Below, piece after piece: positions 11,723 through 64,000 of a DNA stretch of 64,000 nt. The notes beneath the pieces are model-generated. The model searched no databases, was not told the DNA's origin, and was given only the letters and a program-made list of their open reading frames with translations. Every line of letters starts with the position of its first letter. The first letter of the stretch is position 1. The stretch is from Torpedo marmorata (taxonomy: Eukaryota): contig OZ360220.1 of assembly GCA_977017645.1 (NCBI GenBank), forward strand, positions 137,082,001 to 137,146,000, read 5' to 3'. A program made the translations under genes and the position numbers.

Positions 11723-11725
11723 ACT

Positions 11726-11744
11726 TGGGGGACTCGTCCGGGAT
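11726..11744 (+). promoter_or_regulatory. ERV primer-binding site, tRNA-Pro
   Basis: TGGGGGACTCGTCCGGGAT equals the canonical Pro PBS TGGGGGCTCGTCCGGGAT plus one inserted A; major splice donor G|GTAAGT follows at 11922. Confidence 0.85.
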
Positions 11745-11990
11745 CCACACTCCGGTCGTGAGGGTCGAGAGAAGGGACATCGGAGAAGGTGCACCCCGCC
11801 GAGTTCGGCGGTCCCCGACTCCTTGCTCGTCGTACCCACGCGGCTTGAGCGAGTGATATCCGGACAGCGCAGAGCGGAAGACTGGGAAGAAGTAGAAGGA
11901 CGGTCCAGGGCGGCACACCGGGTAAGTGAGTACGACGGTACTAGGATAAGGTGTGACCGGGCGAAAGGGGACCAGGCCGGGAAGGGAACG

Positions 11991-13556: not shown

Positions 13557-14850
13557 GGGGGTCAGGGGTTCCCACCCTTGGGGACAGATTATCGACAGGA
13601 ACCCCTGGTAAATTTAAAATTAGGTCCTCAAGGAGTAGATACTACTTTCATGGTGGATTCGGGGGCCGAACGATCAAGTGTGATATGCAATCCTCCAGGA
13701 ATGAGAGAGGGCAGCAGGATGATGGGAATATCTGGTATTGGAGGAAAAACTATCCAAGTACCCATTGTAGATAATGTGGAGGTTCAATATAAGCAAAGGA
13801 AGACACAACAGAATTTGCTCTTGTTGCCGTCCGCAGGATTCAATCTGATGGGCCGAGATTTACAGGTTCGGCTGGGAATTGGTACTGTGCCTCAAAAGGG
13901 AAAAGTAGTGGTTCAAATGTTCCAACTTAAGGAGAAAGACGATCAACAAATTTCCCCTGAAGTATGGTATAAAGAGGGGAATAGGGGTGGATTAAATGTC
14001 CCACCTCTTCGCATTACCCTGTTGCCAGGGAGCTCCCCTGTACGAAGAAGGCAATATCCCATAGCTTTGGAGGGACGAAAAGGCCTTCAGCCAGTGATTG
14101 AGGGCTTGCTGGAGGATGGGCTGCTAGAAGAGTGCATGTCGCCTTATAATACCCCTATTTTGCCTGTGCGAAAACCCGACGGAACATATCGGATGGTGCA
14201 AGATTTGCGTGGGTTGAATGCGGTGGTCCAAACAAGATACCCTGTTGTACCAAACCCGTATACCTTGATGAGTAAGATCTCCCCAGATCACGAATGGTTC
14301 AGTGTAATAGATCTAAAAGATGCCTTTTGGAGCTGTCCCTTGGAAGAAGGTAGCCGCGATATGTTCGCCTTCGAATGGGAGAACCCACTGACAGGAAGAA
14401 GGCGACAGCTTAGGTGGACGGTGTTACCTCAAGGTTTTACTGAATCACCAAACTTATTTGGCCAAGTGTTGGAACAAGTACTGGCTGAGTTTCAATGCAG
14501 TCCTGAAAACCAGTTACTACAATATGTGGATGATCTACTTCTATCCGGACCCGAAGAGGGTGAAGTGAGAAAAGACACCATTAGATTGCTGAATTTCTTA
14601 GGCAAACAAGGTCTCAGGGTCTCGAAGACAAAACTACAATTCGTCGAGAAGGAAGTTCGATACTTGGGCCACGTGTTGACAAAGGGGAATCGGTGCATTA
14701 CCTCAGAACGGGTGGCTGGAATTACGAAACTCCCGTTACCAAGGAGTAAAAAAGAAATACGCCAATTTTTGGGATTGGTGGGATTCTGTCGGATATGGAT
14801 CGAAAACTATACCCCGCTTGTAAAGTTTCTATACGAAAAGCTGGGACAGA
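13557..14850 (+). CDS. pol: ERV protease and reverse transcriptase (in-frame UAG readthrough), truncated before RNase H/integrase
   Basis: Same frame as gag; DSGA protease motif, IDLKDAF, LPQGF, YVDD; homology breaks after YEKLGQKE. Confidence 0.9.
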
Positions 14851-14912
14851 AAGAAAGTGAGGGGAAGGAGGGGGGCCGTCCTCTCCGGGGTAGTCCCCTC
14901 CAGGTGTTATGA

Positions 14913-15116
14913 TGGTGAAATATTAAAACAGCGTTGCTAATGGTAGGGGGCATATTGTTAGTGCTCCTCTTGTTACCCTGCATTATTCCCTGTTTCCGCA
15001 TGCTTATAACTCGAATTGTGATGCAAGTGATGCAACCAGGGGAACCTGCTGACCCTGTGAAAATGTTGCTCCAAAGAACCCCAGAGGGAGGGGGTTGGAC
15101 CCCCTGGAACCCTTAG
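14913..15116 (+). pseudogene. env: ERV env remnant (transmembrane anchor and cytoplasmic tail)
   Basis: Hydrophobic LLMVGGILLVLLLLPCIIPCF segment just before the PPT (AAAAAGAAAAAGGGTGGAA, 15125-15143). Confidence 0.75.
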
Positions 15117-15144
15117 CACATTCTAAAAAGAAAAAGGGTGGAAT

Positions 15145-15599
15145 TGTTAGGAAAAAGTTAATGTTCTGCTTCTTAGAATGTGCTGTTAATGCTCTTTGAA
15201 ATATGCTGTTGCAAAATATCACGTAGCTAGGCAGCTGCATGCCTGTGCAGACATGGGAAACCAAAAACCAGACAGGGGGAGTGCTTTGCGATTAAATGCT
15301 AAGAATTGAAATAGGGTAGTGGCAAAAGCTTGCGATAGGGGCGGACGTGAACCAAATGGAACAGATGGTACTAATGATGAGGGATGAAATGCCTAAGATC
15401 TAGATTAGGAAGTGTGTGGAACAGAATGTGAACTCATGTAACCTGTGAGTAAAACAAATGTATAAAAGGCTGCTACAATGATGGAACGGGGCTCTCAATT
15501 CCTGCAGGAGCAGGGTGAGCCCGACTCTGCAGACTCGTGACAAATAAAAGTCAACCGCTGCTGCATTTGCTGAGACTCCGTGTGAGTTCTTTTCGGACA
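15145..15599 (+). repeat. ERV 3' LTR (455 bp)
   Basis: Direct repeat of 11268-11722. Confidence 0.95.
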
Positions 15600-15873: not shown

Positions 15874-16804
15874 CTGGAAGAAAAGAAATTTCTGTTATGC
15901 TGTTGGAGGGATTCATATACAAATAAGAAAATGTCACACAACATTTCCCCAGTAAACCCAAAAAGAGCCTTTTTCAAGCAGGAAATATTCATTAGTTTCC
16001 TTCAAATTTCAGACCCTCATTTTATTTTAAAATATTGATTTATTACTGTTCGCTGTGAAACTAAAAGATTGGCATCTGCTAATTCCTGTATCAAAATCAA
16101 TGACAATAATAACTACCGGTATATATGCAGTTCATAGATCAGAAGTATCTGTAAAAATTTTAATATAGAGTATTTATTCTGAAGAAATTCCACTTTTTTT
16201 AAAATACATCTGAGAGGACACCATTGGTGTGAAGGGAGAAGACACAGAAACTAAGAGTTAGAAAGGGGGTGGGTTTCTGGTAATGGAGGTGGCTACAGTG
16301 GTAGTTATCTGCTGTAATGCAATTGTGGCATTTTCTCTCTTAATTAGAAGCCAATGGGCAGTGGAAGATTAACCATTAGGCTGAGTAGGCTGAGTAGGTA
16401 AGGGGGACCGACGCATTATGGTCTGATTAAACTGATTTAACAAAAACAATGAGGTTCATTATTCTCCTTCATCCTTTGTGTTTGTTTGATTTCATTAAAA
16501 ATTGCAGGTAGCCTCCCAGCAGATGAAAAGTTCTGTACGAGTGAGTCAGCCGGGCAATTCTTTTGTGTTGTGCTAACAAAATCATCGAGGCGACAAAACT
16601 ATTTATAAAGTAGCAGAAATGGACCGCATTGTTGCAGGTTGGAGAAGAGCGAGCATATATACAGGAGCACTGGAGGAATGGTGCGCCGTAGCCACAGCAC
16701 TGAAGGAACCTGATGGGACATTTGCGGCCCTTCCTCCCCGCATCTGCACCCTGGGCTGCGGCGGGTTTCCGCGGTCGCCCACCCGGCCTGAGCGGGAAGG
16801 CGAA

Positions 16805-17250
16805 CTCTCCCTGCCCAGCGGGACGGCGACCTCTCCCTGCCCAGCGGGACAGGGGATGGGGACCTCTCCCTTCCCAGCGGGACGGGGGACGGAGACCTCT
16901 CCCTGCCCAGCGGGACGGGGGTCGGGGACCTCTCCCTGTCCAGCGGGACGGGGACGGAGGACGAGACCTCTCCCTGCCCAGCGGGACGGGGGTCGGGGAC
17001 CTCTCCCTGTCCAGCGGGACGGGGACGGAGGACGAGACCTCTCCCTGCCCAGCGGGACGGGGGAAGGGGACCTCTCTCTGCTCAGCGGGACGGGGGATGG
17101 GGACGCGACCTCTCCCTGCCCAGCGGGACGGGGCCGGGGGATGGCGACCTTTCCCTGCCCAGCGAGACAGGGGACGTGACCTCTCCCTGCCCAGTGGGAC
17201 TGGGACAGGCCAGGGGACGGCGACCTCTCCCTGCCTCGTGGGACGGGGCC
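16805..17250. repeat. GC-rich minisatellite, ~24-37-nt units with core GACCTCTCCCTGCCCAGCGGGACGGGG
   Basis: About 13-14 variant units read directly. Confidence 0.92.
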
Positions 17251-23129: not shown

Positions 23130-26100
23130 ACCACAAAATACATGAATCAAAAATAGTATATTAAATTATTCAAAATACATGTGATATATTACCTCCCCCC
23201 CTCCCACCCTCCCCTCCCCAACCCCCCCAGCACTATTCTAAAAAAAAAGAAAGAAAAAGAAGAAAAAAAAAGAATGTTAGTTATAAAGAAAAAAAAAAGA
23301 AAGAATTGAATAATAAAGAATTAAAGAGTTAAAGTGAGGAGAAAACAAATTACAAGCTAATTCTATTTATATATTGGAGGTTATTTTTGCCAGCGGTACC
23401 AACTTCTAGAGAATTAATTCATACCCATAATTCTCATATATGGGCTCCAAATTTTCAAAAAGAAATGATAATTATTCCATAAATTATATGTAATTTTTTC
23501 CAATGGTATACAAGAACGTAATTCTGCATGTAATCTATCTAAATTCAAATCTAAATCTGATTTCCAAGTAATAGCGATACATTTTTTTGAAACCGCTAAG
23601 ACAATTCGTAAAAATTCTATTTGATACATATTCAATCTATTTCTAATACTAAATTTTTTAATATCTCCAAATAAAAATAACATAGGGTCCATTGGAACCG
23701 TAATATTAAAAATTCTATCCAAAAAATCTTTAACTTTAGACCAAAAATTTTGAATTTTTAAACATGACCATGTACAGTGTACAAAAGAACCTATTTCATC
23801 CTTACATCTAAAACACATATCTGATAGTGCCGGGTTAAATTTCTTTAATTTTTTAGGTGTTAAATATAATTGATGAAAAAAATTATATTGTACTAATCTA
23901 TATCTAACATTAATAATTTTAGTCATACTCAATTTACATAATTCTTTCCAATGTTTTTCATCTATATTAATATTTAAATCTGATTCCCAACTTAATCTTG
24001 ATTTATGTAATCCTACCTTAGGCATTTTTCTCTGAAGTAATTTATACATTTGTGATATAAATTTGTTAACATTTCCATTAGTAATTAATAATTCTAATCC
24101 ATCCTGTCTTGGAGTTGTTAATTGATTCCCCAATTTCTCAACTAAAAATCCTCTAACCTGATAGTAAGCCAAAATTGTATTATCCATTATTCCAAATTTT
24201 TCTTTCAACCTAGAAAATGTAACAAATCTTCCAGCCTCAAAACAATCTTTAATCTTCTTAATTCCTTTTTGAAACCATAGTTTTAAAAATTGATTATCAA
24301 TAGAAAAAGGTAACAATAAATTCTGATACAATGGCATATTCAGAGATAATGACCCTTTTCGTCCTATCTCATTGTCTAACTGAGTCCAGATTTCCAATAA
24401 ATGTTTAATAATCGGTGATTTTTTCTTTTTAACTAATAATAATTTAGAATTCCATTTATAAATAATATCTTCTTTATATCTTTCCCCTATATTATTCAAT
24501 TCTATATTAATCCAAGCAGTAGATTTAGTTAAATCAAAAAATTCATTAATAAACTTTAATTGAGCTGCCTTATAATAATATTGAAAATTGGGGAGTTGTA
24601 ATCCACCCATCTCGTATTCCCAAATTAATTTATCCATACTTACTCTTGCTAATTTTCCTTTCCATAGAAATTTTCTAATAATAGTTTTTAAATCTTTAAA
24701 AAAATTTTGAGGAATTCCAAAAGGAATAGATTGAAAAAGATATTGAACTCTTGGAAAAATATTCATTTTAATACAATTCACTCTTCCCATTAAGGTAATA
24801 GGTAAATCTTTCCAATTCTCCAAATCTTTCTTTATTTTCTGAAATAAAGGTACATAATTTAATTTATATAAATTTTCCAATTTTGTATCTACTTTAACTC
24901 CCAGATATTTAATTCCTTCTTTAGCCCATTTAAATCCTGTAACTTCTTTACATTTAGTATAATCTCCTTGAGATAAAGCCATTATTTCACTCTTATCTGA
25001 ATTTATTTTGTAACCAGATATCTCACCATACTCCCTCAATATCTTAGCTAATTGTTGAAGCGATCCAATAGATTTCGTCATATATATTAATACATCATCT
25101 GCAAATAAACTAATTTTATGTTCTTCTGCACCTACTTTAATCCCATTTATATTAATATCTTTTCTAATCACTTCAGCCAACGGTTCTATTGCCAATACAA
25201 ATAAAGCAGGTGATAAAGGGCATCCTTGTCTTGTTGACCTCAACAAAGGGAATTTAGATGATATCTGACCATTTGTAATTACTCTAGCTGTAGGTTCTTT
25301 ATATATAGTTTTAATCCAATTTATAAAAGTATTCCCAAATCCATATTTCTCTAAAACCTTAAATAAAAAATTCCATTCTAATCTATCAAATGCTTTTTCT
25401 GCGTCTAATGTTATCACCAGCGGCAAATCCTGTTTCCTTTTTTGCAAGTTAATTAAACTTATTAATCTTGCTATATTATCCTTCGAATATCTATTTTTAA
25501 TAAATCCTGCTTGATCTGAATGTATTAAAAACGGTAAAAACGTAGCTAGTCTGTTTGTCAAAATTTTTGCCATTAATTTATAATCTACATTCAACAGTGA
25601 TATAGGTCTGTATGACTCAGTTTTTAATACATCTCTATCTTTCTTTGGTATAACTGTAATAATAGCATTTTAAAAAGTTTTCGGTAATAAATGAGTTTCC
25701 TTAATTTGAGTCAATACTTCCATATATATAGGTATCTGTAAGTCTTTAAACTTCTTATAAAACTCTATCGGAAATCCATCATCACCAGGAGATTTACCAC
25801 TTTTCAATGACGATAAAGCTTCAACTACTTCTCTCATTGTAATAGGTAAATCTAACATATCTCTATTAAAATTATTTAATTTAGGCAATGTAATTTTAGA
25901 TAAAAAATTATCAATTTTTGTAACATCCTGATCAATCTGCGAAGTATATAAATTCTGATAATATTCTCTGAAAGAATCATTTATTTCCTGAGGTTTATAA
26001 GTTATTTCACCAGTACTTTTTTTTATAGCATTTATAGTTTTAGAAACTTGTTCTTTTTTTAATTGCCATGCTAGAACTTTATGTGCTCTTTCTCCTAATT

Positions 26101-26822
26101 CATAATATCTTTGTTTTGTTCTACCAATTAATTTTTCTATTTTTCGAGTTTGTAATATATTATAATGCAATTTTTTCCTAATTAAACGTTGTCTCTTAAA
26201 AATTGTTTTATTTCTTTGAAAATCTTTCTCCATAAATTCAATCTCCCTTTCCAAATTTTCTTCTTCTTTCAAATAATCTTTTCTAATTTTTGCTGAAAAA
26301 CTTATTATCAAACCTCTTAGATATGCTTTTAAAGATTCCCAAATTATAAATTTATCATTAACTGAATTATTATTAATTCTTAAAAATTCCTGAATTTCTT
26401 TTCTTATATATTCACAAAAGTCTTTTCTATTTAATAAAAAAGAATCTAATCTCCAATTATATACAGTTTTTTCTTTCTCTGGAATTATACATGTCATCAA
26501 TAAAGGTGAATGATCTGAGATTATTCTTGCTTTGTAAGATATTTGAGTTACTCTATCCTGAATTTGTGAAGATATCAAAAACAAATCAATCCTTGAAAAT
26601 GAGTTATGTCTAAAAGAATAAAATGAATAATCTTTTTCTCTAGGATTTAATTTCCTCCAGATATCTACCAGATTTAAATCATCCATTAAATTAATAATTC
26701 TTTTGACTATTTTAGGTCTAACAAATGTTTTAGTAGTTTTGTCCATGTTCGCATTTAGACAGCAATTAAAATCTCCACCAATTAAAATATTTTCCTTAGC
26801 CTCAGATAAATGTAAAAAAGAC
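23130..26822 (-). mobile_element. L1-clade LINE, ~3.7 kb, ORF2 from partial APE endonuclease to C-terminus with one nonsense codon
   Basis: ORFs 25670..26746 and 23414..25594 are in the same frame (KTF*NAIITVIPKK); SRIDLF, SDHSP, QGCPLSP, FADD, CFRC...H...C motifs. Confidence 0.93.
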
Positions 26823-27904
26823 TTGTGCCATTCTTAACAGTACCAGTAAGGCAGGGTCATTGTGTTGTGTGGCTGGAATATTTTCCACCGAGTGACAAAC
26901 TTGCATCTCCCTTGTCAAACATCGGATAGTCACATGCAGAATAAACTTACAATTCCAGATCACTAATAAGGACTTCAATGACAGCAGAGTGATGCCTTTC
27001 TTTTTCCAGTCTAGTAATTTCTTGGTCTCTCTGAGATTGATTTTCAAGTGCATTGAGAGGAAGTTCTCACAGAGTCGGCGTCAGAAGAGATCTAATCGGG
27101 GGGCATTAGGGTAACCGTGTGGGGGGTGGCACAAACTGCTGTTCGAGAACTCACTCAGCGGGGGGGGGAGGGGTGCAGTCTGCAATTGTAAATTAAAACT
27201 GCAGTCTTCCAATCAACGAGGTTTTTCATCACTGACAAGTGTCCATCAGGGTAGTGCGGAACGTGGCTTTCGATTTAATCCGTGTTCGTTTGTTAATTCT
27301 TTTAACATTGTCTCTGGTGACTGTCAGCGCCTGAAATTCACAAGAGAATGGTTTCCCGTGGGATCCGTATGGTTCGAGTAGATCCCAGTAAAGATTGCTG
27401 GATCTGTTCCCATACGTACAAACACATCCCCCAGACTTTCTCAATCCACCCTTGTCCAAATGTGCTGGCTGCTGCTGAGATAAGTTTTCATTTGTCTTTT
27501 TTTTGGCCCCGTTGACAGCTTTCGTGAATACGTTTGGGTAAGGAGTGTCAGTAACTCAGGCATTTAGGGGCTCACAGGCAAGCCCATTCCTGTCCCATTC
27601 GGGACGATACATGCTCTCGCAGCCGGAGCCATGCACTGTGGAGCCTATGAGCCGATTTTTCCCATGGCCCGCAACCCCCTAGTGACGCTAGTGCTGCGGG
27701 TGGGTGGGGGGGGGGAACAATAACTCATTTGGGGAGGCATGGCCCGCGTATGCCCCCCCATGACACTGAGCCTGAGTTCTCATACTGTCTGCTTTCTTCA
27801 CCAAATTAATGCCTATATTTCCAGTGTAGGAAGTGTCACCACAAAGGGAAAGATTGCAGCCAAACCCAATTCTCCCCTCTTCCTAACTTCTAACAAAAAC
27901 ATTC

Positions 27905-36374: not shown

Positions 36375-39300
36375 TGATGCACCATCAATAACTCCAAAGA
36401 CTAGAAGTTAGACAGGAACTGATAGGCTTTTATTCACATTGGAATGGATGTGCAGTCCTGGTGGTCGTCTAAGCTGGAATGGGGAGGGAGCTGTGGCACA
36501 ATAGCCTTTATTCAGGGGTCTGTGGGAGGAGCCACAGGTTCAGCCAGTAAGGGGCATGTCCAGACGACCATAAGCATATATACATGTATTTACAGTGGTT
36601 TACCACATTCACCCCTCCATTTAAAAAGAGTCCTGCGGGGTGAAGTGAATTAAAGTTCTCACAGATTCAGTCTTTCAGTGGTCTGGTCTGCCGCTGCGAC
36701 CGTCGTAGTACTGGCTGCGGCGCAGCTGTTGCATCCAGTCCTGAGTGGACCACCTGTGTGTTGTTGTCGGCTCTGTCTTGGTGGATGCATGGCGGCGAAG
36801 TATCTGGCAAGTCATCCCCCGGAGCTGGGGTCACTTGCCGAGGTAAGGGTGCATCGTGGGTGGCGGTGGGTGGGGGGGCAGGTCGGTCATTGGTGGTGTC
36901 AGGGACTCTTGAAGGTGCCAGGTCCCGAACGGAGACCATGTCCTCCCGCCCATCAGGATACGTCACGTAGGCGTATTGGGGGTTGGCGTGGAGGAGATGG
37001 ACCCTTTCGACCAGTGGGTCCTGCTTATGGCTCCTCGCGTGCCCCCGGAGTAGGACTGGCCCTGAGGACATCAGCCAGGATGGCAGCGTGGTCCCTGAAG
37101 CGGACTTCCTAGGGAAGGAAAACCTTCTCTCATGTGGAGTGGCATTGGTGGCTGTGCACAAGAGTGATCTGATGGAATGGAGTGCCTTGGGGAGTATCTC
37201 TTGCCAGCAGGAGACTGGAAGACCTCTTGACCTTAGGGCTAGGAGGGTGGCCTTCCAAACGGTGGCATTCTCCCTCTCCACCTGCCCATTCCCTTGGGGA
37301 TTATAACTGGTGGTCCTACTCGTGGCGATGCCTCTGGCCAGCAGGTACTGACGCAGCTCCTCACTCATAAAAGAGGACCCCCGGTTGCTATGGATATAGC
37401 AGGGGTACCCGAAGAGGGTGAAAAGGTTGCGTAGGACCTTGATGACTATGGTCATGTCCGGGCAGGAGATGGCGAACGGGAAACGTGAGTATTCATCAAT
37501 AATGTTGAGGAAGTACATGTTGCGGTCAGAGGAGGGGAGTGGTCCCTTGAAGTCAACGCTCAGGCGTTCAAAGGGGTGGGTGGCTTTTATCAGGTGCGCT
37601 CTGTCTGGTCGGTAGAAGTGTGATTTGCACTCTGCACAGATCTGGCAGTTCCTGGTCATGGTCCTGACTTCCTCGATGGAATAGGGTAGATTGTGGGCTT
37701 TTATAAAATGGAAGAATCTGGTGACCCCGGGGTGGCAGAGGTCGCTGTGGAGGGCTTGTAGGCGGTCTATTTGTGTGCTGGCTCATGTTCCGCGGGAAAG
37801 GGCATCTGGGGGCTCATTGAATTTACCGGGCCGGTACAAGATATCGTAATTGTAGGTGGAAAGTTCAATTCTACACCTCAGAATCTTGTCGTTCTTAATT
37901 TTACCTCGCTGTTGGTTATTAAACATAAACACAACTGAACGTTGGTCAGTTAGCAAGGAAAACCATTTTCCAGCGAGGTAGTGCCTCCAGTGCCACACCG
38001 CCTCAACAATGGCTTGGGCCCCTTTCTCGACAGAGGAGTGTTGGATTTCTGGGCCCTGGAGGGTGCGAGAAAAGAAAGCTACGGGTCTGCCCGCTTGGTT
38101 GAGGGTGGCGGCCAGGGCGAAATCAGACACATCGCTCTCCACCTGGAACAGGGTGGATTCGTCCACAGTGTGCATCGTGGCCTTTGCGATGTCCGCTTTG
38201 ATGCGGCTGAAGGCCGCACGGGCCTCTGACGTCAGGAGAAAAGAGGTGGATTTGACGAGGGGGCGGGCCTTGTCTGCATAATTGGGGGACCCACTGGGCA
38301 TAATAGGAAAAGAAGCCCAGGCACCTTTTCAGGGCTTTGAGGCTGTGGGGAAGTGGGAGTTCCAACAGGGGGTGCATGAGGTCTGGGTCTGGGCCAATCA
38401 CTCCATCTTGTATGACACTGCCAAGGATGGCCAGGCGTGTTGTGCCAAATACGCATTTATCCCTTTTATAAGTAAGGTTAAGGAGCTTGGCGGTCTGAAG
38501 GAATTTTTGGAGGTTGGCTTCATGACCCTGTAGGTCATGGCCGCAAATGGTGATATTATCCAGTTACGGGAATGTGGCCTGCAGCCCGTACTGGTCGACC
38601 ATGCGGTCCATCTCCCGCTGGAAGACCGAGACCCCGTTGGTGACACCAAAGGGGACCCTCAGGAAATGATAGAGGCGGCCAGCTGCCTCAAAGGCAGTGT
38701 ATTGGCTGTCCTCCGGTCGGATGGGGAGTTGGTGGTATGCCGACTTTAAGTCGATGGTGGCGAATACCCGGTATTGGGCGATCTGATTCACCATGTTGGC
38801 TATGCGGGGGAGGGGGTACGCATCCAGCTGCATATATCTGTTGATGGTCTGACTATAATCGATGACCATCCTGTTCTTTTCCCCATTTCTTACCACTACC
38901 ACTTGGGCTCTCCAGGGGCTAGTGCTGGCTTCGATGATCCCCTCCTTCAACAGCCGTTGCACTTCCGACCTGATAAAGGCCCTGTCCCCGGCACTATATC
39001 GCCTACTTTTGGTGGCCACGGGTTTGCAATCGGGGGTACAATTAGCGAACAACGGTGGGGGGGGCGATCCGGAGGGTAGAAAGGCCGCAGGTCATGGGCG
39101 GTAGGCGAGTCGCTGGCTGGACGCAATGGGAGGGGGACCCAGGGAGCTTCTGTGGGTGACTTGCGATGGGCGGTTCACAAACTGCGGATTACAGACGGTA
39201 AGAGGGGGGTGGGGCCCATCGTACTCCAAAGTCACGCTTTTAAGGTGACATTGGAAGTCTAGCCCCAGCAACACGTCCGCGCAGAGCTGTGTCATGACTA

Positions 39301-40778
39301 ATAACTTCAAGTGTTTACATTCTGTGCCCAGTACAGTCAGGGTCACTATGCAGTACCCGCGGATCTCTGCTGTGTGAGACTTGGAAGCCATGGAGACTTA
39401 GTGGCTTACCAGTGTTACCGCGAGTCGGTAACGCTGTACCGTGTCGGGGTGAATAAAGCTCTCCGTGCTCCCACTGTCGAAAAGGCAGCTCGTCCTGTGG
39501 CCATCCACCTCAATGTCCATCATTGATCTTGCCAGTTGATGGGGACTCCCTTGATCGAGAGTGATGGAGGCCAGTACGGTGTCGCTGTCGGATTCGCACG
39601 CGGCGCTGCTGGGTGGGGAAGATGGCGTCGTCCAAGATGGCGGCCCCCATGGTTCGCATGTGGCGCTGCTGGATTGGGAAGATGACGTCGTCCTAGATGG
39701 CGGCGCCCTCTGCTCGCAAGCGGCGCTGCTGGATCTAGCGGGCGGTTGGGACTTACAGACTTTCGCATAGTGCTCCTTCTTCCTGCAGTTAATGCAGAAC
39801 GCGTCTTTCGCAGGGCAGCGTTTCCGTGGGTGCTTATCCGATCCACAGAGGTAGCACTTCGGCTGGTTGCGGGTCATAGCAGCCGTGGTCGAGTCGGTAA
39901 TGGAACGTGGCGGTGTTCCAAAGGCTTGCGACCCTCCCGCGTCCCAAGACGGCGGCGCCTGCTGCAACCACGGTGTGGCCGCGCTATCGGCCGAGTACGC
40001 GTCCATGTTTTGGAGGGCCACTTCTAATGTGTCCGCTAGGTGCACAGCCTTCCGCAAATCGAGCTCACCTTGCTCCAAAAGTTTCTGCCTTATGTAGTTA
40101 GATCGGATACCGGCAACATAGGCATCCCTTATGAGGTCCTCAGTGTACGTCGCGGCCGTATCGGCTGCGCAGTTGCAGGCCCGTTCGAGGGTTCGCAGGG
40201 CTAATAGGTATTCATCACTCGATTCCCTAGGTCGCTGTTTTCGGGTAGCTAGGAGATGTCTTGCGTAGACTTGGTTTACCTTCTTCAGGTACTGGCCTTT
40301 TAGCGTCTCCATAGCCTCCTGGTAGGATTCAGCGTCCCTGATCATCAAGTACACCCGGAGCCCGACCCGGGAATGTAGTAGTTGTAGTTTGTCGTCTTCC
40401 GATTGGACGACAGCAGCGGAGGCCCTCAAGAATGCCTCTAAACAACGCAGCCAGTGTTCGAAACAGTTGGATGCCTCAGGTGATCGAGGGTCTAGCTCTA
40501 ACTTTTCTGGTTTCAGGTACTTATCCATTATTGAAAACAATGTGAATAAAATTGATGCACCATCAATAACTCCAAAGACTAGAAGTTAGACAGGAACTGA
40601 TAGACTTTTATTCACATTGGAATGGATGTGCAGTCCTGGTGGTCGTCTGAGCTGGAATGGGGAGGGAGATGTGGCACAATAGCCTTTATTCTGTGGGAGG
40701 AGCCACAGGTACAGCCAGTAAGGGGCGTGTCCAGACAACCATAAGCATATATACATGTATTTACAGTGGTTTACCGCA
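36375..40778 (-). mobile_element. Ty3/Gypsy LTR retrotransposon copy A (4404 bp), full length, decayed ORF
   Basis: LTRs 40553-40778 (5') and 36375-36607 (3'); TSD CCATT; gag from ATG 40528 with two CCHC knuckles, protease DSG, RT, RNase H, integrase (HHCC, D-D-E type); PPT at 36608-36618. Confidence 0.95.
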
Positions 40779-41200: not shown

Positions 41201-44200
41201 ATAGAACCGTAGAACACTACAGCACAGAAACAGGCCCCTTTGGCCCTAGTCCCACTGACCTGCACCCAGTCCATAGCCCTCCATATCTCTCCCATCGATG
41301 TACCTGTCCAAATTCTTCTTAAATGTTAAAATTGAGCCCGCATTCACCACCTCAGCTCGTTCCACACTCCCACCACTCTCTGTGTGAAGAAGTTCCCCCT
41401 CAATAAAGGTCGATACAAAATTGACTAATTTATATAAATTAAATTATGTACCATTATTTGTGAAAATAAAGAAAGATTTAGAAAATTGGAAAGATTTACC
41501 TATAACTTTAATGGGAAGAGTAAACTATTAAAATGAATGTTTTTCCAAGAATTCAATATCTTTTTCAATCAATTCCTTATGTAATTCCTCAAATTTTTTT
41601 TTAAAGATTTAAACTCAATTATTAGAAAATTTTTATGGAAAGGAAAGTTAGCAAGAGTAGGTATGGAAAAATTAACTTGGAATTATGAAATGGGTGGTTT
41701 ACAACTTCCTAATTTCCAAAATTATTATAAAGCAGCTCAATTAAAATTTGTTAATGAATTTTTTGATTTAACTAAATCTTCTGCTTGGATTAAAATAGAA
41801 TTAAACAATATAGGAGAAGATTCCAAAGAAGAAATTATTTATAAATGGGATTCTAAATTAATATCAACAAAAAAGAAAAATTCGCCTATTTTTAAACATT
41901 TGTTAGAAATATGGAATAAGACGGATAAGGAAATAGGAGCAAAAGGATTGATTTCTTCAAGGATGCCTTTATATCAAAATGGACTTATTCCATTTACTAT
42001 TAATAATCAATTATTTAAAATTTGGTTTCAAAAAGGAATTAAGAAGATTAATGATTGTTTTGAAGCTGGAAAATTTATTACCTTTCAAAGAATGAAAGAT
42101 AAATTTAATATATTAGATAATACACTTTTTGCTTATTATCAAATTAGAGCTTTTTTGATTGAGAAATTAGGTTATGCTTTGATTTTGCCAAGACAAAATG
42201 AATTAGAATTATTAGTTACTAAAGGCGATGTTAATAAATTTATTTCTCAAATGTATAAATTGTTTCAGAGGAAAATGCCTAAAGTAGGAATGCATAAATC
42301 AAGATTAAAATGGGAATTAGATTTGAATGTAAGAATAGATGAAAATCATTGGAAAGAATTATCTAAATTAAGTATGACGAAGATTATTAATGTTAGATAT
42401 AGATTAGTTCAATACAATTTTTTTCATCAATTATATTTAACACCTAAAAAATTAAAGAAATTTAATCCAACATTATCAGGTTTATGTTTCAGATGTAATA
42501 AAGAAGAGGGATCTTTTGTACATTCTACATGGTTTTGTCCAAAAGTTTATGATTTTTAGTTGAAAGTTAAAAGTTTTTTAGATAAAGTATTTAAGATTAC
42601 ATTTCCAATGGATCCTATGATATTTTTGTTTGGAGATATTAGAAAATTTAGTATTAAGATGAAACTAAATATGTATCAGATAGAATTTTTGCGAATTGCT
42701 TTAGCTGTTTCAAAGAAGTGCATTGCTATTACTTGGAAATCTGATTTAGATTTAGGATTAGAAAGATGGCATGCAGAACTTCGTTCATGTATACCACTTG
42801 AAAAAATTACTTATAATTTACATAATAAATATCATTTTTTCTTAAAAATTTGGAGCCCATATATGAGAGCTGTTGGCTTAAGAATTTGAGGATCTCTGGG
42901 TATTGGGTCTACTGGCATACTTGACCTCCATAATAGAAGTAGTTTATAGATTGGCATTCCCCTAACTCTATTTTTCTCTTTCTTCTTTTTCTATTTTTAT
43001 TTTATATTTTTATTAGATTAGTGGGGTTGGGAGGGTTGGGGAGGGGAGGGGTGAAAATGTATCACAAATAATTTCATAACTGTATATTTTATTTTATGTA
43101 TTTTGTGATTTAAAAATTTTAAATAAAATATTTAATTTAAAAAAAAAGTTCCCCCTCATGTTCCCCCTAAACTTTTCCCCTTTCACTCTTAACCCATGTC
43201 TTCTGGTTTGTATCTCACCTACCCTCAGTGTAAAAAGCCCATCTACATTTACTCTGTCTATCCCCCTCATAATTTTAAATACCTCTATCAAATCTCCCCT
43301 CATTCTTCTACACTCCAGGGAATAAAGTCCTAAACTGTTTAACCTGTAACTCAGTTCCTAAAGTCCGGGCAACATTCTAGTAAATTTTCTCTGCACTCTT
43401 TCTATCTTATTGATATCTTTCCTGTAGTTAGGTGACCAAAACTGCACACAATACTCCAAATTTGGCCTCACCCATGTCTTATACAACTTTAACATAACAT
43501 CCCAACTCCTGTACCTAATACTTTGAATTATGATGGCCAATATGCCAAAAGCTCTCTTTACAACCTTATCCACCTGTGACGCCACTTTCATTGAATTATG
43601 TATCTGTATTCCCAGGTTCCTCTGTTCTACCACACTCCTCAGTGCACTACCGTTCACCGTGTATGTCCTTTCTTGGTTTGTCCTTCCAAAATGCAACACC
43701 TCACATTTGTCTGCATTAAATTCCATCTGCTATTTTTCAGCCCATTTTTCCAGCTGGTCCAGATCTCTCTGCAAGTTTTGAAAACCTTCTTCGCTGCCCA
43801 CAATGCCTCCAATCTTAGTGTCATCTACAAACTTGCTGATCCAATTTACCACATTATCATCCAGATCATTGATATAGATGACAAACAACAATGGTCCCAG
43901 CACTGATCCCTGAGGCACACCACTAGTCACAGGCCTCCAGTCTGAGAAGCCATCATCCACCACTACTCTCCAGCTTCTCCCGTCCAGCCATTGTCGAATC
44001 CAGTTCACTACTTCACCATGAATACCTAGCGCCTGAACCTTCCTGACTAGCCTCCCATGTGGGACCTTGTCAAAGGCCTTACTAAAGTCCAAGTAGACAA
44101 CATCCACAGCCTTTCCTTTGTCAACTTTCCTAGTAATCTCCTCGAAAAACTACAAGATTGGTTAAACACGACCTACCACACACAAAGCCATGTTGACTAT

Positions 44201-52483: not shown

Positions 52484-55400
52484 TGTAGCGCGATCAATGA
52501 CCACTCGCAGACACGAAGAAAGTGATCAAAGGCTTTATTAATCAGAAAATCCAGGCATGCCTCTACATGCTGCTGGCTCACGTCCAAGCCAGGTATAAGG
52601 GGAGGAGACTAAGGCTCTCAGCCTTTATTAGGGGATCTAATGGGGAGGTACTACAGGTTAGCCTAGTGAGCCAGTGAGGACATACCCGCAGTACCGTGTT
52701 CCACCACATTCACCCCTCCTTTTTTTGAATGAAGTCCGGCGGGGTGAAGCGGGGCAATGTCCATCAGCACGGGTTTTGTAGTCCATACAGTTCATAGGTT
52801 CAGCCGCTCCGGCAGTTTTATTCAGCGCTGAGATCTCCGAAGTACTACTGGCTGTATCTTTGGATCTAGCGGAGCGGTGGCTTGATCGACCTGCTGGCTG
52901 TTGGAGGGCTGAACTGTGTCTGTGTGTACCGGGTCCGTAGGGGGTGGTGAATTTGTTTGTAAGAGTGGGGGGGGAACACACAAGTGGGGGGGAACACTCG
53001 GGGGGCCGTCTTGGAGGTGGGATCCCTACATCATTTGTCAGGGTGATCCCTGGGGCAGACTGGTCGCTGCCTGGGGATATCGGGTGCACCTCCCGTGCAG
53101 GGGCCCCCGCTCGCGCCAGGTCCCGGATGGACACTGTATCGTCCCGTCCGTCCGGGTACCTTACCAGCGCATACTGGGGGTTCGCATGCAAGAGGTGCAC
53201 TTCCTCGACCAGTGGGTCCGCCTTATGCGTCCTAACATGCTTCCGGAGAAGCACCGGCCCTGGGGTCGTCAGCCAGACCGGCAGCATGGTTCCCGACACT
53301 GACATCCTAGGGAAGGAGAACAATTTTCATGGGGTGTTGCATTAGTGGTCGTGCAGAATAGGGACCTGGTGGCATGCTGCGCTTCTGGGAGGACCTCTTG
53401 CCACTGGGATACGGGCATCCATTTCGACTTGAGGGCCAAAAGGACTGCCTTCCAGATCATACCATTTTCCATTTCCACCTGCCCGTTCCCACGGGGGTTG
53501 TAGCTGGTGGTTCTGCTCGTAGCTATGTCCCTGGAAAGGAAGTATTGCTGCAACTCCTCACTCATGAAGGCAGATCCCCGGTCACTATGAACGTAACTGG
53601 GGTATCCGAACAGAGTGAATACTGTGCGGAGTGCTTTAATGACCGTGGATGTGGGCAGGGGATGGCGAATGCGAAACGTGAGTACTCGTCCACGGTGCTC
53701 AGGAGTAGGTGTTCCGATTAATGGACGGGAGGGACCCCTTGAAGTCCATGCTGAGACGTTCGATGGGGCGAGTGGCTTTGATGAGTTGGGCTCTCTCCGA
53801 TCTGTAAAATTGAGGCTTGCATTCTGCACAGACCGGACAATTGTGAGTCAATTCCCTGACTTCCTCTACTGAGTAGGGGAGGTTACGGACCCTCACAAAA
53901 TGGTAGAGCCTAGTGACCCTGGGATGGCAGAGGCTATCGTGGAGGGCCTGGAGGTGATTAACTTGCACCCTGGCACAGGTTCCTCTGGACAGGGCATCGG
54001 GTGGCTCATTGAGCTTGCCCGGCTGGTACCATATTTCATAATTGTAGGTGGACAGCCCAATTCTCCACCTCATGATTTTGTCATTTTTGATTTTACCCCG
54101 TTTATTGTTAAACATAAAAGCGACGGCTCTCTGGTCCGTCAGCAGGGTGAATGGTCTGCCGGCCAAGTAGTGCCTCCAGTGACGCACTGCCTCCACTATA
54201 GCTTGTGCCTCCTTTTCGATGGTCGAGTGCCTGCGTTCGGGGCCTTGGAGAGTGCGGGTAAAAAATGCCACTGGCCTGCCTGCTTGGTTCAGTGTGGCAG
54301 CCAGAGCAAAGTTGGAGGCATCACTTTCCACTTGGAACGAGACGGATTCATCAATGGCGTGCATTTCCGCCTTGGCACTCTCGCCCTTGATGCCCTCGAA
54401 GGCCTTACGGGCCTCCGCCGATGAGGGAAAGGTTGAGGTTGGGCCTTGTCTGCATAGTTAGGGATCCATTGGGCATAATACGAGAAGAGCCCCAGGCACC
54501 TTTTTAAAGCCTTCGGGTTCTGTGGCAGGGGTAATTCCAGAAGGGGCCGCATGCGCTCGGGGTCGGGGGCGATAGCACCATGCTCCACCACGTACCGCAG
54601 GATTGCCAGCCTCTTGGTGCTAAACACACACTTTTTCTCATTGTATGTGAGATGAGTGCCTTTGCGGTGGCCAGAAACCTCTGCAGGTTCTCGTCATGTT
54701 CCTTCTGGTCATGGCCGCAGATGGTGACATTGTCCAGGTATGGATATGTCGTCTTTAGTTTATTGTCATCCACCATGCGGTCCATTTCCCTTTGGAACAC
54801 TGACACCCCATTCGTGAGGCCGAATGGGACACGCAGGAAATGGTAGAGTCGGCCGTTGGCCTCAAATGCCGTGTACAGCCGGTCTTTTGGGCGAATCGGG
54901 ATTTGGTGGTACGCTGCTTTGAGGTCTATGGTAGAGAAGACCCAATACTTGCTGATCTCATTCACCATATCAGCTATGCAGGGCAAAGGGTAGGCATCCA
55001 GTAAGGTGAACTGGTTGATGGTCTGACTGTAATCTATCACCATCCGATACTTCTCCCCACTCTTCACCACCACTACTTGCGCCCTCCAGGGACTATTACT
55101 CGGTTCTATTATGCCCTCTTCCCACAGCCGCTCCACCTCCATTTTAATGAATTTTCTGTCCCCGGGGCTGTATCGCCTGCTCTTAGTGGCAACCGGTTTG
55201 CAGTCCGGGGTGAGGTTTTGGAACAGCAGAGGTGGAGGGACCCGGAGGGTGGCCAGGCCGCAGGTTGGGTGCCCGACCCGGCGTTCAAGCGTGTGATTCG
55301 GCCTCCTCGGGGGAATGGGCGGGGCCTCCTGGAACTGGTTATTACTGACGGTGAGTGGGGGGTGGGGCCCGTCAAACTGCATCAGCACACCCTTAAACTG

Positions 55401-56982
55401 GCACTGGAAATCTAGCCCCAATATGACGGGTGCGCAGAGGTGGGGCATCACCAGCAGTTTAAAGTTCTTATACTTCGTGCCCTCCACGGTTAGGGTCACG
55501 GTGCAGCTTCCGCGGATTTCCGCAGAGGGGATTTGGAGGCTAGTGCTACCTTTCCTTTGGCTGGGGACACAGTCAGTGAATAACGCTCGGCCATGCCCAG
55601 GTGTATGAAGCTCTCAGTGCTTCCCGTGTCGAACAGGCAGCCAGTGGAGTGACCGTTTACCTCAATGTCCATCATCGATCGCCCCAGCTGGTGTGGTCTA
55701 CTTTGGTCCAGCACGATGGACGCCAAAGTCAGCTCACTGTCTGAGTCGCTGCTGCTATGTTGTTGGGATGGCTGCCGCCAAGATGGCTGCCCGGGAGATC
55801 GTGAAGATGGCCGCCCCCATGGATTGCATGCGGTCGAGTCCGGAGATGAAGCCGGAAGTGACGTCAGTCCTTGTCGCCGCGCCCCTGGTCCAGAAGTTCA
55901 GTTCTCGGCAACCGGAAATGACGGCGGAAGAGGGTCGGCCCAAGATGGCAACGAGGGTCGCGGTCTGCACGCGGCACTGCTAGAGTGGGGCTTACAGCGA
56001 CATACCCTGGCATAGTGTCCTTTCCTCTGGCAGTTTCAGCAGGTCGCGCTACGGGCCGGACAGTACTTTCGCGTGTGTTTGCTTTGGCTGCAGTAGTTGC
56101 ACCTCGCGTGCTCGGCAGTGGCAGCTGCAGCTAGGGGCCCTGAGTCCCAAGATGGCGTCACCCGTTCTCCCCACCTGGCGGCCGTGTGGCCCGCTGAGTA
56201 GGCCTCCGCGTTCTTTTGGGCCGTCTCCATCGCTTGGGCCATCTGCACCACTTCCTGTAGGGACTGATCTCCTTTCTCCAGGAGTCGTTCCCTTATGTGC
56301 TGGGAGCAGAAGCCCGCGACTAGCCCGTCACGGATGAGCTCCTCCTGGTAGGTCGCTGCATTCACGTCCCGGCACCCGCAGGCTCATCCCAGCTCCCACA
56401 TGACCCTCGCAAAATCGTCAACCGACTCACCGGGGACCTGGCGTCGGGAGCCCAGCTGGAAGTGCGCGTACATGGCGTTCATCGGGGCTCCGTATTGCTG
56501 TCGGAGTAGGGCCATTGCCTCTTCGTATTCAGTGCAGTCTCGAATTATTTGGTACGCTCGGTGGCCCACAGCTGCGAAGAGCAGGTCGTACTGATCACCA
56601 TCGAGTGTGATGTTGTGGGCCTCAGGTAGGCCTTCAAACAGTGTAGCCACACATCAAACTTTACAGAGGCCTCTGGTTCCTTTGGATCGATCTCCAGCTT
56701 CTCCAGTCTGATTGCCTTCTCCATGGCACTTTAAAATTCTGATTAATAAATCGTAGCGCGATCAATGACCACTCGCAGACACGAAGAACGTGATCAAAGG
56801 CTTTATTAATCAGAAAATCCAGGCATGCCTCTACATGCTGCTGGCTCACGTCCAAGGCAGGTATAAGGGGAGGAGACTAGGGCTCTCAGCCTTTATTAGG
56901 GGATCTAATGGGGGTTACAGGTTAGCCCAGTGAGCCAGTGAGGACATGCCCGGACATGCCCGCAGTACCGTGTTCCACCACA
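52484..56982 (-). mobile_element. Ty3/Gypsy LTR retrotransposon copy B (4499 bp), full length, frameshifted; inserted in an old CR1 3' end
   Basis: LTRs 56752-56982 (5') and 52484-52708 (3'); TSD CTAGC/CAAGC; gag ATG 56724, two knuckles, protease DTG, RT with YLDN, RNase H, integrase. Confidence 0.95.
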
Positions 56983-59640: not shown

Positions 59641-61248
59641 TTGCTTCTGGCTGCAGTATACAGAGCAATGCTGGTTGAAAATCTTAGTGATTCATCTGCA
59701 GCTTTGACTGCTGCCACACTGTTGACCTTGGCGTTAATGGATAAGATGTCAAGCAACTCCTTAAACAGGAATGCCAGTTCATGGACTATTAATAGAGCAG
59801 AATTAGGCTTTACCATAATTACCTGCTGATATTTCATTGTCTGGATCTCCCAAAGCAGCAAGGGGCAAAACAATGCCCTATTTTGGGGCAAAATATTACC
59901 AACATAAGGTAACAAAGTGAAGGTGCACTGCAAGAGTATTCAGTCTAAATAGCTCATACAAGATCTAAATCACTGACATTTACCTGCATGTATCATCCAT
60001 CTTGAATCTAAAACAGTCATTAGAAATTCAGCACCTCAGTCTAGGAGTTGGCAAATGGTAACTAATTAACCTGCAATCTAATTAATAATGTAAAAAAGAT
60101 AAACCAAATCAAGTTTATTTCTCCACGCTGTTATTTGAACAGAAATTTGTCTCCTAAAGAGCAACAAATAACCTGATAATCCAGTTTAGAAATTGTCACC
60201 AAGATTAACACATTTGCTCAAAAATAAGATCATGATATCTTTTACTTCGAAAGGACAAACATCCCACAATTCCTGCTCTGTTCTCTGTAGCAGCCATTAA
60301 AACCACAAGCTACTGACTCAGGGTAATGTCAATGATTTATAGTAGACACAGTATTGTGTCACAAAGAAACAAATAGAATTGCTAAAAATAGTAATTGTCA
60401 ACTAAATATTTCTGAATTCCTTCTGCTTTGGCATATCAACAGCAATAGAATGTACCAGCACAACGTTGAGCCGACAACTTAAGAATCAAACATCATATTA
60501 ATGAAACTTAAAAGCAGTTTGTCTATGACATAATGGAATTTTACTAAAAACCTAAATGGGATCAGGCACATAGCGTATAAGGAGCTCATGCTGAATTTAT
60601 ATTACAGATCCTCTGTGTATATGATGCACAAATTGTCAGGCTTCTGCTGGGATGTCAAAATTTAATTTTAATGTTACTTGTGCAAAAGTGTCTGTGAAGT
60701 TTGAAGAGGATGGGCCTTGCACATTGAAGTAGCTTACTTGACATCGGAAATTGGGGACCCTACCTTAACTGGCAGGAAGCCCAAGGCACATACTGGCATT
60801 TGGATGGGATCTCTTTTAAATGCTTTTTGTAACACTTGCTCCCATTTGTGACTCACCTCCACCTCACCATCTCGAAAACCTAACATTTGGCTCTAAAAAG
60901 CACCTAAAACTCACCTCCTGTTTCTCCCTCAGTTCCTTATCCTCTTTCTGACCAATCACTCGATCCCAATGTCTAAATTAGTCAATTTTTCTTAAAATTT
61001 TCTGTCTGAAGCCATGAAGTTGTGTTTTATGCAAAGAAATATATGATTGCCAATTTACTGTATAGGGAAATAAAAGAATATTAGAATCCCTTTCCTATGC
61101 CAAATACTTATCTGTCACAAGATTATTACCACACATGCATGCCAAGGACAGAGTCTGAATTACCTCACTAGCCTCCACACCATGCAGATGACAATCAATC
61201 ATAAATAAATGTGGGCTTTCAAACCACTTAGAAAATTGTATGATGCAT

Positions 61249-62977
61249 TGATACGCCCATCAATAACTCCAAAAGACTAGAAGTTACACAAGAACTGAAA
61301 GGCTTTTATTAGCTACAGAATGGATCTACATTCGTGCTGATGATCTGTCCCGGACTGGGGGAGGAGTTGTGGCACAATGGCCTTTATTCAAGGGGGTTAG
61401 TTGGAGGAGCCACCGGGACAGTCAGCAGGGCATGTCCAAACCTATCACCAGCCCACAATACATATACAGTGGTTTACCACATTCACCCCTCCTTTTAAAA
61501 GAGTCCAGCGGGGTGAAGTGAACACTAACAACACATTTAAAATATATTAAAGTCAAAGATCAAGTCGATCAGGCGGTCGAGTCTGACGTCGTGATCGGCG
61601 CAGTACTTGTGGTGATGGGGCAGGCGGCGGAGCTACCTCCTACCTAGTTTGGGGTACCAGAACGTCGGGTGACGGCGAAAGTGCTGGTGAGTGTGGTGTC
61701 GTGTTGGGATCGAATGGTACGTCTTGTGTTTGCACGGGGGTAATCGTAACAAGGGGGTGTTCGAGGGCGGGTTCCGGTGCTCCTGCGGGCGCCAGGTCCC
61801 GGATGGAGACGGTGTCTTCCCGCCCATCAGGGAAGACCACGTAGGCGTACTGGGGGTTGGCATGAGCTAACTGGACCCTCTCAACCATTGGGGCGTATTT
61901 ATTGCTCCTGACATGTTTGCGGAGCAGCACTGGCCCTGGGGACGTCAGCCATGCTGGTAGGGTAGTCCCGGTGGTCGACTTCCTGGGGAAAGAAAAGAGT
62001 CTCTCATGAGGAGTTGCATTGGTGGACGTACATAGCAGGGATCGGATGGAATGGAGGGCCTCAGGAAGGACTTCTTGCCAGCGGGAGACTGGTAATCCCT
62101 TAGACCTGAGGGCTAAGAGAGTGGCCTTCCAGACCGTGGCGTTCTCCCTTTCCACCTGACCGTTACCCCGTGGATTGTAGCTTGTGGTCCTGCTAGTGGC
62201 GATACCCCTGGCCAGCAGATATTGTCGCAGCTCATCGCTCATAAATGAGGACCCCCGGTCGCTATGGATGTAGCAGGGGAAACCAAACAAGGTGAAGAGT
62301 TTGCGGAAAGCTTTTATGACAGAGGTGGCTGAGGTATCGGGGCAGGGAATGGCGAAAGGGAACCGCGAGTACTCATCAATAACGTTGAGGAAGTACACGT
62401 TACGGTCGGTGGAGGGGAGGGGACCCTTGAAGTCGACGCTGAGTCGCTCAAAAGGGCGGGTCGCCTTAACTAGCTGTGCCCTGTCAGGGCGGTAGAAGTG
62501 CGGTTTGCACTCCGCGCAGACCTGGCAGCTGCTGGTCATCGTCCTGACCTCTTCCAGGGAGTACGGTAGGTTACGGGCCTTCACAAAGTGAAACAGCCTG
62601 GTAACTCCGGGGTGGCAGAGGTCACAGTGGAGGGCATATAACCGGTCGATCTGTGCACTAGCGCACGTCCCCCGGGATAGAGCATCGGAGGGCTCATTGA
62701 GCTTCCCGGGCCGGTACATAATATCATAGTTGTAGGTGGAGAGTTCGATTCTCCACCTCAGTATTTTGTCGTTTTTGATTTTACCCCGCTGCTGATTGTT
62801 GAACATAAATGCGACTGAGCGTTGGTCAGTCAGCAGGGTAAACCTTTTGCCGGCGAGATAGTGCCTCCAGTGCCTGATAGCTTCCACTATGGCTTGGGCC
62901 TCTTTCTCCACCGCGGAGTGCCGAATTTCTGGGCCTTGAAGGGTACGGGAGAAGAACGCCACCGGTCTTCCTGCCTG
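61249..62977 (-). mobile_element. Ty3/Gypsy copy C (same lineage as A): 3' LTR 61249-61481 plus open RNase H-integrase frame
   Basis: ORF 61640..62962 is uninterrupted (EKEAQA, TDQ, DALSR, HxxxCH...CxxC, DFKG...SDRG...VERE); LTR is similar to copy A. Confidence 0.92.
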
Positions 62978-64000
62978 TTTTTTTTAAAAAATATTTTATT
63001 TAAAATTTTTAAATCACATAATACATAAAATAGAATATAAAATTATCAAATTATTTGTGATACATTTTCAACCCCCCTCCCTCCCTCCCCTCCCCAACCC
63101 TCCCAACCCCACTAATCTAATAAAAAATAAAAATATAAAATAAAAATAGAAAAAGAAGAAAAAAAAGAAAGAAAAAGATAGAGTAAGGGGAATGCCAATC
63201 TATAAACTAATTCTATTATGGAGGTCAAGTATGCCAGTAGATCCGATATCCAGAGATCTTCAAATCCTTAAACCAACAGCTTTCATATATGGGCTCCAAA
63301 TTTTTAAGAAGAAATGATATTTATTACGCAAATTATAAGTAATTTTTTCAAGTGGTATACACGAACGAAGTTCTGCATGCCATCTATCTAATCCTAAATC
63401 TAAATCAGATTTCCAAGTAATAGCAATGCATTTCTTTGAAACAGCTAAAGCAATTCGCAAAAATTCTATTTGATACATATTTAATTTCATCTTCATACTA
63501 AATTTTCTAATATCTCCAAACAAAAATATCATACGATCCATTGGAAATGTAATCTTAAATACTTTATCTAAGAAATTTTTAACTTTCAACCAAAAATCAT
63601 AAACTTTTGGACAAAACCATGTAGAATGTACAAAAGACCCTTCCTCTTTATTACATCTAAAACATAAACCTGATAGTGTCGGATTAAATTTCTTTAATTT
63701 TTTAGGTGTTAAATATAATTGATGAAAAAAATTGTATTGTACTAATCTATATCTAACATTAATAATCTTCGTCATACTTAATTTACATAATTCTTTCCAA
63801 TGATTTTCATCTATTCTTACATTCAAATCTAATTCCCATTTTAATCTTGATTTATGCAATCCTACTTTAGGCATTTTCCTCTGAAACAATTTATACATTT
63901 GAGAAATAAATTTATTAACATCTCCATTAGTAACTAATAATTCTAATTCATTTTGTCTTGGTAAAATCAAAGCATAACCTAATTTCTCAATCAGAAAAGC
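62978..64000 (-). mobile_element. L1-clade LINE 3' portion inserted into the RNase H of Gypsy copy C
   Basis: ORF 63260..63970 is near-identical to 42180-42889; its A-tail abuts the Gypsy QAGRPV codons. Confidence 0.92.

Follow-up and report, generated by a model that had tools for sequence, protein, structure and literature searches.

Can a reverse transcriptase (RT) in which asparagine replaces the second aspartate of the YxDD motif sustain an LTR retrotransposon? The question is raised by two divergent Gypsy copies in a 64,000-nucleotide stretch of Torpedo marmorata DNA, which we refer to as the window and analyzed over its whole length. YxDD is the usual marker of a live RT, and a DN form has been taken as a loss of activity, as in the bacterial G2L5 RTs (PMC2602772, available text). 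A transposing YxDN lineage would break the YxDD rule for LTR elements, and annotation pipelines would class its families as dead. It would also bear on why the Ty1 D211N and Ty3 D214N enzymes polymerize in vitro yet fail to transpose. The initial annotation of the window proposed a naturally successful two-aspartate RT, perhaps co-adapted with an unusual priming structure. Here, we describe the two copies, trace the asparagine through the host genome and across animals, and weigh what its persistence would mean for the enzyme.

Two dead elements with asparagine in RT motif C

Both copies lie on the minus strand, a detail absent from the initial annotation, whose reading of the catalytic motifs we otherwise recovered. 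In copy B, motif C (54729..54740) reads TAC CTG GAC AAT on the minus strand from 54740 to 54729, that is, YLDN within PYLDNVTICGHD, with the asparagine codon AAT at 54731-54729. In copy A, motif C (38555..38566) reads TAA CTG GAT AAT from 38566 to 38555, that is, *LDN within P*LDNITICGHD; the tyrosine codon has become TAA, and the asparagine codon is again AAT. Motif A (TIDLK), which carries the first catalytic aspartate, is intact in both copies, at 54918..54932 in copy B and at 38744..38758 in copy A. Over the 150 codons up to and including motif C, the two copies are 75% identical in protein and 72% identical in DNA.

The 5' LTR of copy B (TG...CG; 56752..56982) is flanked by GCTTG at 56987-56983, and its 3' LTR (TG...CA; 52484..52708) by GCTAG at 52483-52479; the two LTRs have diverged by 2.3%, gaps excluded. 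Between them lie 14 nt at the primer-site position (56737..56750), a gag-PR-RT-RNase H-IN coding region (53102..56724) and a polypurine tract (52709..52723). The 14 nt are a perfect complement of the LTR segment 56815-56802, which contains an AATAAA signal. In copy A, the 5' LTR (40553..40778) and the 3' LTR (36375..36607, preceded by a polypurine tract at 36619-36608) have diverged by 3.1%, gaps excluded. Its 14 nt at the primer-site position (40538..40551) are likewise a perfect complement of an LTR segment (40619-40606), and its gag-pol coding region spans 36679..40528. The primer sites of copies A and B differ in sequence and have retained their pairing. Both copies are dead, copy A being interrupted by stops and copy B by frameshifts and stops.

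The paired LTRs and target site duplications (TSDs) reported by the initial annotation were present in full in copy A, with its perfect AATGG. For copy B the claim held only in part, since the TSD matches at four of five positions (GCTTG/GCTAG) and the 5' LTR terminates in CG, not CA. A third member of the same clade, copy C (61247..62980, minus strand), comprises a 3' LTR, RNase H and integrase; it is split by a LINE at the window end, and its RT (YLDN) lies just past the window (L256:2773-5148, minus strand). Motif C in copies A, B and C departs from the canonical YxDD, reading YLDN or, in copy A, *LDN.

The window also contains other elements. An endogenous retrovirus-like element on the plus strand (11268-15599) has 455-nt LTRs that are 99.8% identical, a 5-bp TSD (TATTG), and Gag p30, zinc knuckle, protease and RT (YVDD) within 4.3 kb. 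It looks young and, given a length of only 4.3 kb and that no integrase or envelope frame was seen in it, internally deleted. LINE copies occupy 1-955, 5851-6537, 23132-26833, 41406-43147 and 62978-64000, and the minus-strand LINE at 23414-26833 carries endonuclease and RT (FADD) frames of 387 and 751 codons. A tandem array at 16794-17248 has spacings of 33 and 38 nt.

Assignment to Ty3/Gypsy

The frames of copies A and B matched Pfam RVT_1, and their domains follow the order RVT_1, RT_RNaseH, rve. Protease families were matched on full-length homologues, giving the order PR-RT-RNase H-IN. The structural marks of Ty3/Gypsy are also present: paired LTRs of the form TG...CA, a TSD and a polypurine tract, with one mismatch in the TSD and one at the 5' LTR end in copy B. 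YLDN aligns residue for residue with YLDD of the Ty3 RT, and an AlphaFold model (pLDDT 90.6) found its best structure match in Ty3 RT 4OL8 (E 3.6e-15, TM 0.84). The clade to which the decayed copies A and B belong is a pan-animal one within Ty3/Gypsy, and its elements share a layout of about 4.4 kb, a single gag-pol frame, LTRs of about 230 nt, a 5-bp TSD and a self-complementary primer site. No chromodomain was reported by Pfam in these elements. An ESM Atlas search gave generic RVT_1 clusters only, with no clade name, and the motif strings YLDN, WRAQV and DYSQT were absent from the four searchable supplements of PMC6238403.

Asparagine as a family state in the host genome

The initial annotation held that the shared asparagine is not post-insertion decay, and counts across the host genome (6.2 Gb) bear this out. 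The exact codon pattern of family B occurred with asparagine 1,895 times, with aspartate five times and with serine twice, and the reversed-pattern control gave 0 matches. These pattern counts replaced an earlier sample in which the first 30 own-genome matches were all asparagine (30/30), a result biased by the asparagine query. Four of the five aspartate copies of family B belong to the same subfamily as the sampled asparagine copies, being 90-93% identical to each other and 92-93% identical to those copies; the fifth aligned poorly. As the aspartate copies resemble asparagine copies at least as closely as they resemble one another, they look like scattered point mutations. Both asparagine codons, AAT and AAC, are used, behind either GAC or GAT. 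The analysis as a whole supports reading the asparagine of copies A and B as an old, inherited state compatible with repeated rounds of transposition.

Aspartate families in the same genome

The clade families of this genome, with about 39,000 RT-motif copies in all, arrange themselves largely as one ladder in which subfamilies succeed each other. Genome-wide, PYLDD[VI]TICG matched 26,985 times and PYLDN[VI]TICG 12,073 times, these being exact patterns that under-count older copies. LTR ages were compared in a positional sample from one contig, in which LTR pairs were obtained from 34 of 62 asparagine loci (the window copies included) and from 37 of 40 aspartate loci. Median LTR divergence was 4.0% for asparagine pairs and 0.8% for aspartate pairs (p=1e-9), and pairs diverged by 1% or less numbered 1/34 and 20/37, respectively. 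The youngest copies in this genome carry YLDD, a pattern that the initial annotation had set against its own reading.

The branching order, however, places the aspartate families at the tip of a ladder of asparagine families. Their nesting within the asparagine lineage was supported on 669 columns by branches of 99/99, 100/99 and 100/99, and a tree with aspartate as sister was rejected on the same columns (AU p=0.003); on the shorter RT-RNase H alignment (399 columns) the aspartate-as-sister rooting was not rejected (AU p=0.077). Because the aspartate families are nested inside the asparagine lineage, they are a later reversion and did not mobilize the older A and B families. The mobilization in trans by YLDD helpers that the initial annotation had named as the other threat to its reading cannot be assigned to these families, which are younger and nested. 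No older aspartate lineage was found among 84 matches to YxDD[VI]TVCG, all of which read as single-base variants of the young aspartate families. Two stingray proteins (P0004 and P0005) branch inside the host ladder, above families A and B, a placement that suggests either shared ancestry or transfer between hosts.

The self-complementary primer site

When at least 9 nt of perfect pairing at a fixed position were scored, the primer site paired with the element's own LTR in 24 of 29 asparagine copies and 33 of 35 aspartate copies. The 11-15 nt that follow the 5' LTR pair with an LTR segment that holds AATAAA and stops 50-57 nt short of the LTR end. The sequence of the site differs between families, including in the own-genome sample L061-L165, and pairing is kept by matched changes; the arrangement was also seen in another host. 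We take the self-complementary primer site as a clade trait that probably serves Tf1-like self-priming. Since it is found in both asparagine and aspartate copies, the site is not tied to asparagine, and the suggestion that the RT is co-adapted with the priming structure was not supported.

The clade across animals

Tabulation of the motif, which the initial annotation had proposed, gave 91 xxDN, 27 xxDD, one YLEY and one row not covered among the best 120 of 1,421 homologues. The named asparagine rows in this set come from sharks, rays, a crab and two corals, and the named aspartate rows from insects, a spider and a sea cucumber, together with one decayed ray row. Shark and ray proteins are the nearest named relatives among the matches listed. 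One YLDN clade member, P0013, is labelled as a Rhizobiales bacterium MAG and is probably animal contamination of a bacterial bin. We then took 150 representatives at 50% identity and assigned to the clade those with 45% identity or more. The 117 clade rows comprised 58 DN, 44 DD, four other and 11 not covered, while the 33 more distant Gypsy rows comprised 30 DD, one DN, one other and one not covered. The protein P0247, a distant Gypsy RT from outside the clade, reads FIDN, possibly by decay or by an independent switch.

A FastTree tree with the motif residue masked was computed from 285 rows, namely the 199 of 270 proteins and 86 of 102 own-genome copies that passed a length filter. It has an all-aspartate outgroup, 23 basal aspartate rows and an inner subclade in which the state switches, in a deep order that long branches make uncertain. 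The inner subclade accounts for 23 changes between aspartate and asparagine, 15 of which are forced by well-supported branches, compared with 93 for shuffles; an IQ-TREE analysis of 96 rows put the number at 8-11. Aspartate and asparagine were the only lineage states at the third position, which would suggest that an Asx side chain is required there. This widespread animal Gypsy clade has repeatedly carried asparagine at the third catalytic position while continuing to multiply.

Signs of function in asparagine lineages

With residue roles assigned from RT motifs, asparagine rows retain the motif A aspartate in 108/109, the steric-gate tyrosine in 108/109, the fingers arginine in 111/111, and the RNase H D/E/D carboxylates in 94/95, 87/88 and 81/82. 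Retention in aspartate rows was similar. When dN/dS was computed from differences common to pairs of copies, the RT gave 0.021, 0.067, 0.020 and 0.049 between asparagine families and 0.025-0.035 between aspartate families; three of the asparagine family pairs, including A versus B, are saturated at synonymous sites. The within-family control gave 0.21-0.35 in asparagine families, not near 1, so that it is an imperfect neutral baseline.

Asparagine elements also occur outside this genome. Among 80 metagenome loci, retrieved with a bias toward sequences resembling the asparagine query, 35 read DN, 33 DD and nine were other or misaligned, with three not covered. Two apparent metagenome LTR pairs, each 127 nt long and 100% identical, were set aside as probable assembly overlaps; a further pair, of 164 nt, had no TSD. 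In one other assembly, all of the retrieved loci (10/10) carried asparagine. Four of these have LTRs that are at least 99% identical together with 5-bp TSDs, and in three of these four young elements a frame runs for at least 1,217 codons without a stop. The asparagine lineages therefore display what is expected of an autonomous lineage, purifying selection on their own RT and recent intact insertions; the window copies are dead. The case for autonomy of the asparagine lineage draws on selection and timing; the paired LTRs and TSDs of two dead copies are not enough by themselves. The naturally successful two-aspartate RT first proposed is thus supported in part.

Candidate permissive and compensating residues

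Across 14 independent pairs, none of 534 tests singled out a significant compensating residue (best 5.0 vs 0.9); the design has low power, and four own-genome rows that group on long branches were excluded from it. The strongest raw association with asparagine was at an RNase H position (80/95 vs 7/28). As a compensator it was rejected, because independent pairs no longer showed the association (2.2 vs 0.3 of 14) and the aspartate families of this genome carry the residue as well. A motif B glycine and a threonine two residues after the asparagine or aspartate (+5 Thr) occur in 97% of the inner subclade, compared with 22% and 35% of the basal rows. As correlations only, these two residues are candidates for a permissive background; the glycine is not required, since asparagine is also found with alanine in a few rows.

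Tolerance of asparagine and alternative explanations

Taken together, we consider it likely that the RT of this clade tolerates either asparagine or aspartate at the third catalytic position and that the elements are autonomous. The asparagine-type RT would then be a working, self-sufficient polymerase. The motif A aspartate and the first aspartate of YxDx would bind the catalytic metals. At the third position, the oxygen of an Asx side chain would suffice to position the primer end, release pyrophosphate and translocate, the functions that have been proposed for Ty1 D211 and Ty3 D214. The loss of charge would be absorbed by a clade-wide background and not by a residue that changes at each switch. 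Asparagine is probably tolerated rather than favored, because only aspartate and asparagine occur as states, switches run both ways, and a return to aspartate preceded the latest burst in this genome. On balance, we lean toward the broader proposal that a large, self-priming, pan-animal clade has remodelled its RT and transposes autonomously on two aspartates, with at least 15 flips of state and, in this genome, a dated ladder from asparagine families to aspartate revertants.

Asparagine elements might instead be polymerase-dead and copied in trans by aspartate-type relatives, their RT being retained for structure only, perhaps to supply RNase H as one subunit of an asymmetric dimer like that of Ty3. 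Aspartate-type members of the clade are abundant here (26,985 matches) and have the same primer-site layout, D214N and D211N block transposition in yeast, and only subunit A polymerizes in the Ty3 dimer (PMC5371799, available text). We nevertheless find this improbable: the aspartate families arose from asparagine ancestors and postdate A and B, the looser motif pattern uncovered only their variants and no older helper lineage, polymerase-only residues are equally conserved in both kinds of row, and another assembly yielded asparagine at every locus retrieved, some of the elements being very young. Aspartate-type helpers that are extinct or more distant may have played a part. It is also conceivable, though doubtful, that asparagine is adaptive and lowers or retunes RT activity (through attenuation, Mn2+ use or the RNase H balance in self-priming), a reading that overlaps with tolerance in an autonomous element. 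The state has persisted across saturated synonymous divergence (A vs B) and across animal phyla, and reversion takes one transition, yet aspartate variants have not been amplified in family B (five aspartate vs two serine, p=0.45). Ty1 D211N works better with Mn2+, and changes in RNase H suppress its defect (PMC2148107, available text); the strongest raw association in our data was with an RNase H position. That association, however, did not survive in independent pairs and its residue occurs in aspartate families here, the primer site is alike in both states, and reversions are repeated, the reverted lineage being dominant in this genome.

Two further explanations concern the codon. The protein could carry aspartate anyway, by A-to-I editing of the AAY codon or by deamidation of asparagine. 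Animals, which all named clade hosts are, have ADARs, and an inosine-bearing IAY codon would be read as aspartate. Edited genomic RNA would, however, fix G in new insertions, contrary to the 1,895:5 ratio of family B, and asparagine followed by valine or isoleucine is a slow context for deamidation; we therefore regard this explanation as very improbable. Post-insertion CpG decay of GAC GAY to GAC AAY deserves hardly any credence. GAC GAY does contain a CpG, a few asparagine matches lie one base from aspartate families, and lone asparagine rows (L099 and L165) stand among aspartate families. Yet whole families are fixed for asparagine, including family A with its CpG-free GAT AAT, family B is nearly without intact GAC GAT copies (5 vs 1,895), and other hosts showed no significant excess of GAC before asparagine (19/35 vs 12/33, p=0.15). 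The family-wide counts refute CpG decay as a general explanation, and it accounts for scattered copies only.

Comparison with known systems

The Ty3/Gypsy elements of the Tf1/sushi type are self-primed, the primer site pairing with the element's own LTR and not with a tRNA, and we take the clade to resemble them in this respect. In the clade, the primer-site position is complementary to the element's own LTR over 11-15 nt; unlike in Tf1/sushi, the paired segment includes AATAAA and ends 50-57 nt before the LTR end, and Pfam reports no chromodomain. Short LTRs, a clear AATAAA, compactness and a wide animal range are shared with the Mag lineage and the MolGy clades, a likeness drawn from the descriptions in the available text of PMC6238403 and PMC3601003.

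A natural DD to DN change at the same motif has already been published. The bacterial G2L5 group II-like RTs carry it as a conserved feature, and it has been interpreted as polymerase loss (PMC2602772, available text). The G2L5 RTs are bacterial, whereas in the clade described here the change sits in a mobile element, and the new insertions are themselves a record of reverse transcription. In the literature searched, with Repbase, GyDB and subscription papers outside reach, we found no description of a natural YxDN in an LTR retrotransposon; judged from the accessible portions of the sources, the case is apparently undescribed, an earlier record being possible.

The Ty1 D211N mutant shares with the clade the change from aspartate to asparagine at the second aspartate of YXDD, in an enzyme that remains competent to polymerize. 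In vitro, its kpol is 223-fold lower and Mn2+ is preferred; in vivo, as the initial annotation had rightly stated, transposition is abolished, with 5-10% regained with RNase H suppressors (PMC2148107, available text). Unlike the clade, it is a laboratory mutant of a Copia element, and the tests on the clade turned up no RNase H residue that covaries in a matching way. Ty3 RT (S. cerevisiae, 4OL8; D151/D213/D214) is, among solved structures, the best match in both sequence and fold and shares the PR-RT-RH-IN order. D151 and D213 are taken as metal-binding, and D214N keeps polymerase activity, with reduced processivity, and is lethal for transposition (PMC5371799, available text). Ty3 naturally carries YLDD, whereas the asparagine of the clade is inherited in families of thousands of copies, and Ty3 lacks the clade marks PWRAQV, DYSxTIN (a one-residue insertion), FGVTNG and HDxNL. 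Natural asparagine and aspartate sister enzymes a few percent apart would offer a route to the step served by the third aspartate and to the permissive background. If the clade does transpose with asparagine, it constitutes a natural experiment on the reason that Ty1 and Ty3 lose transposition through this very swap.
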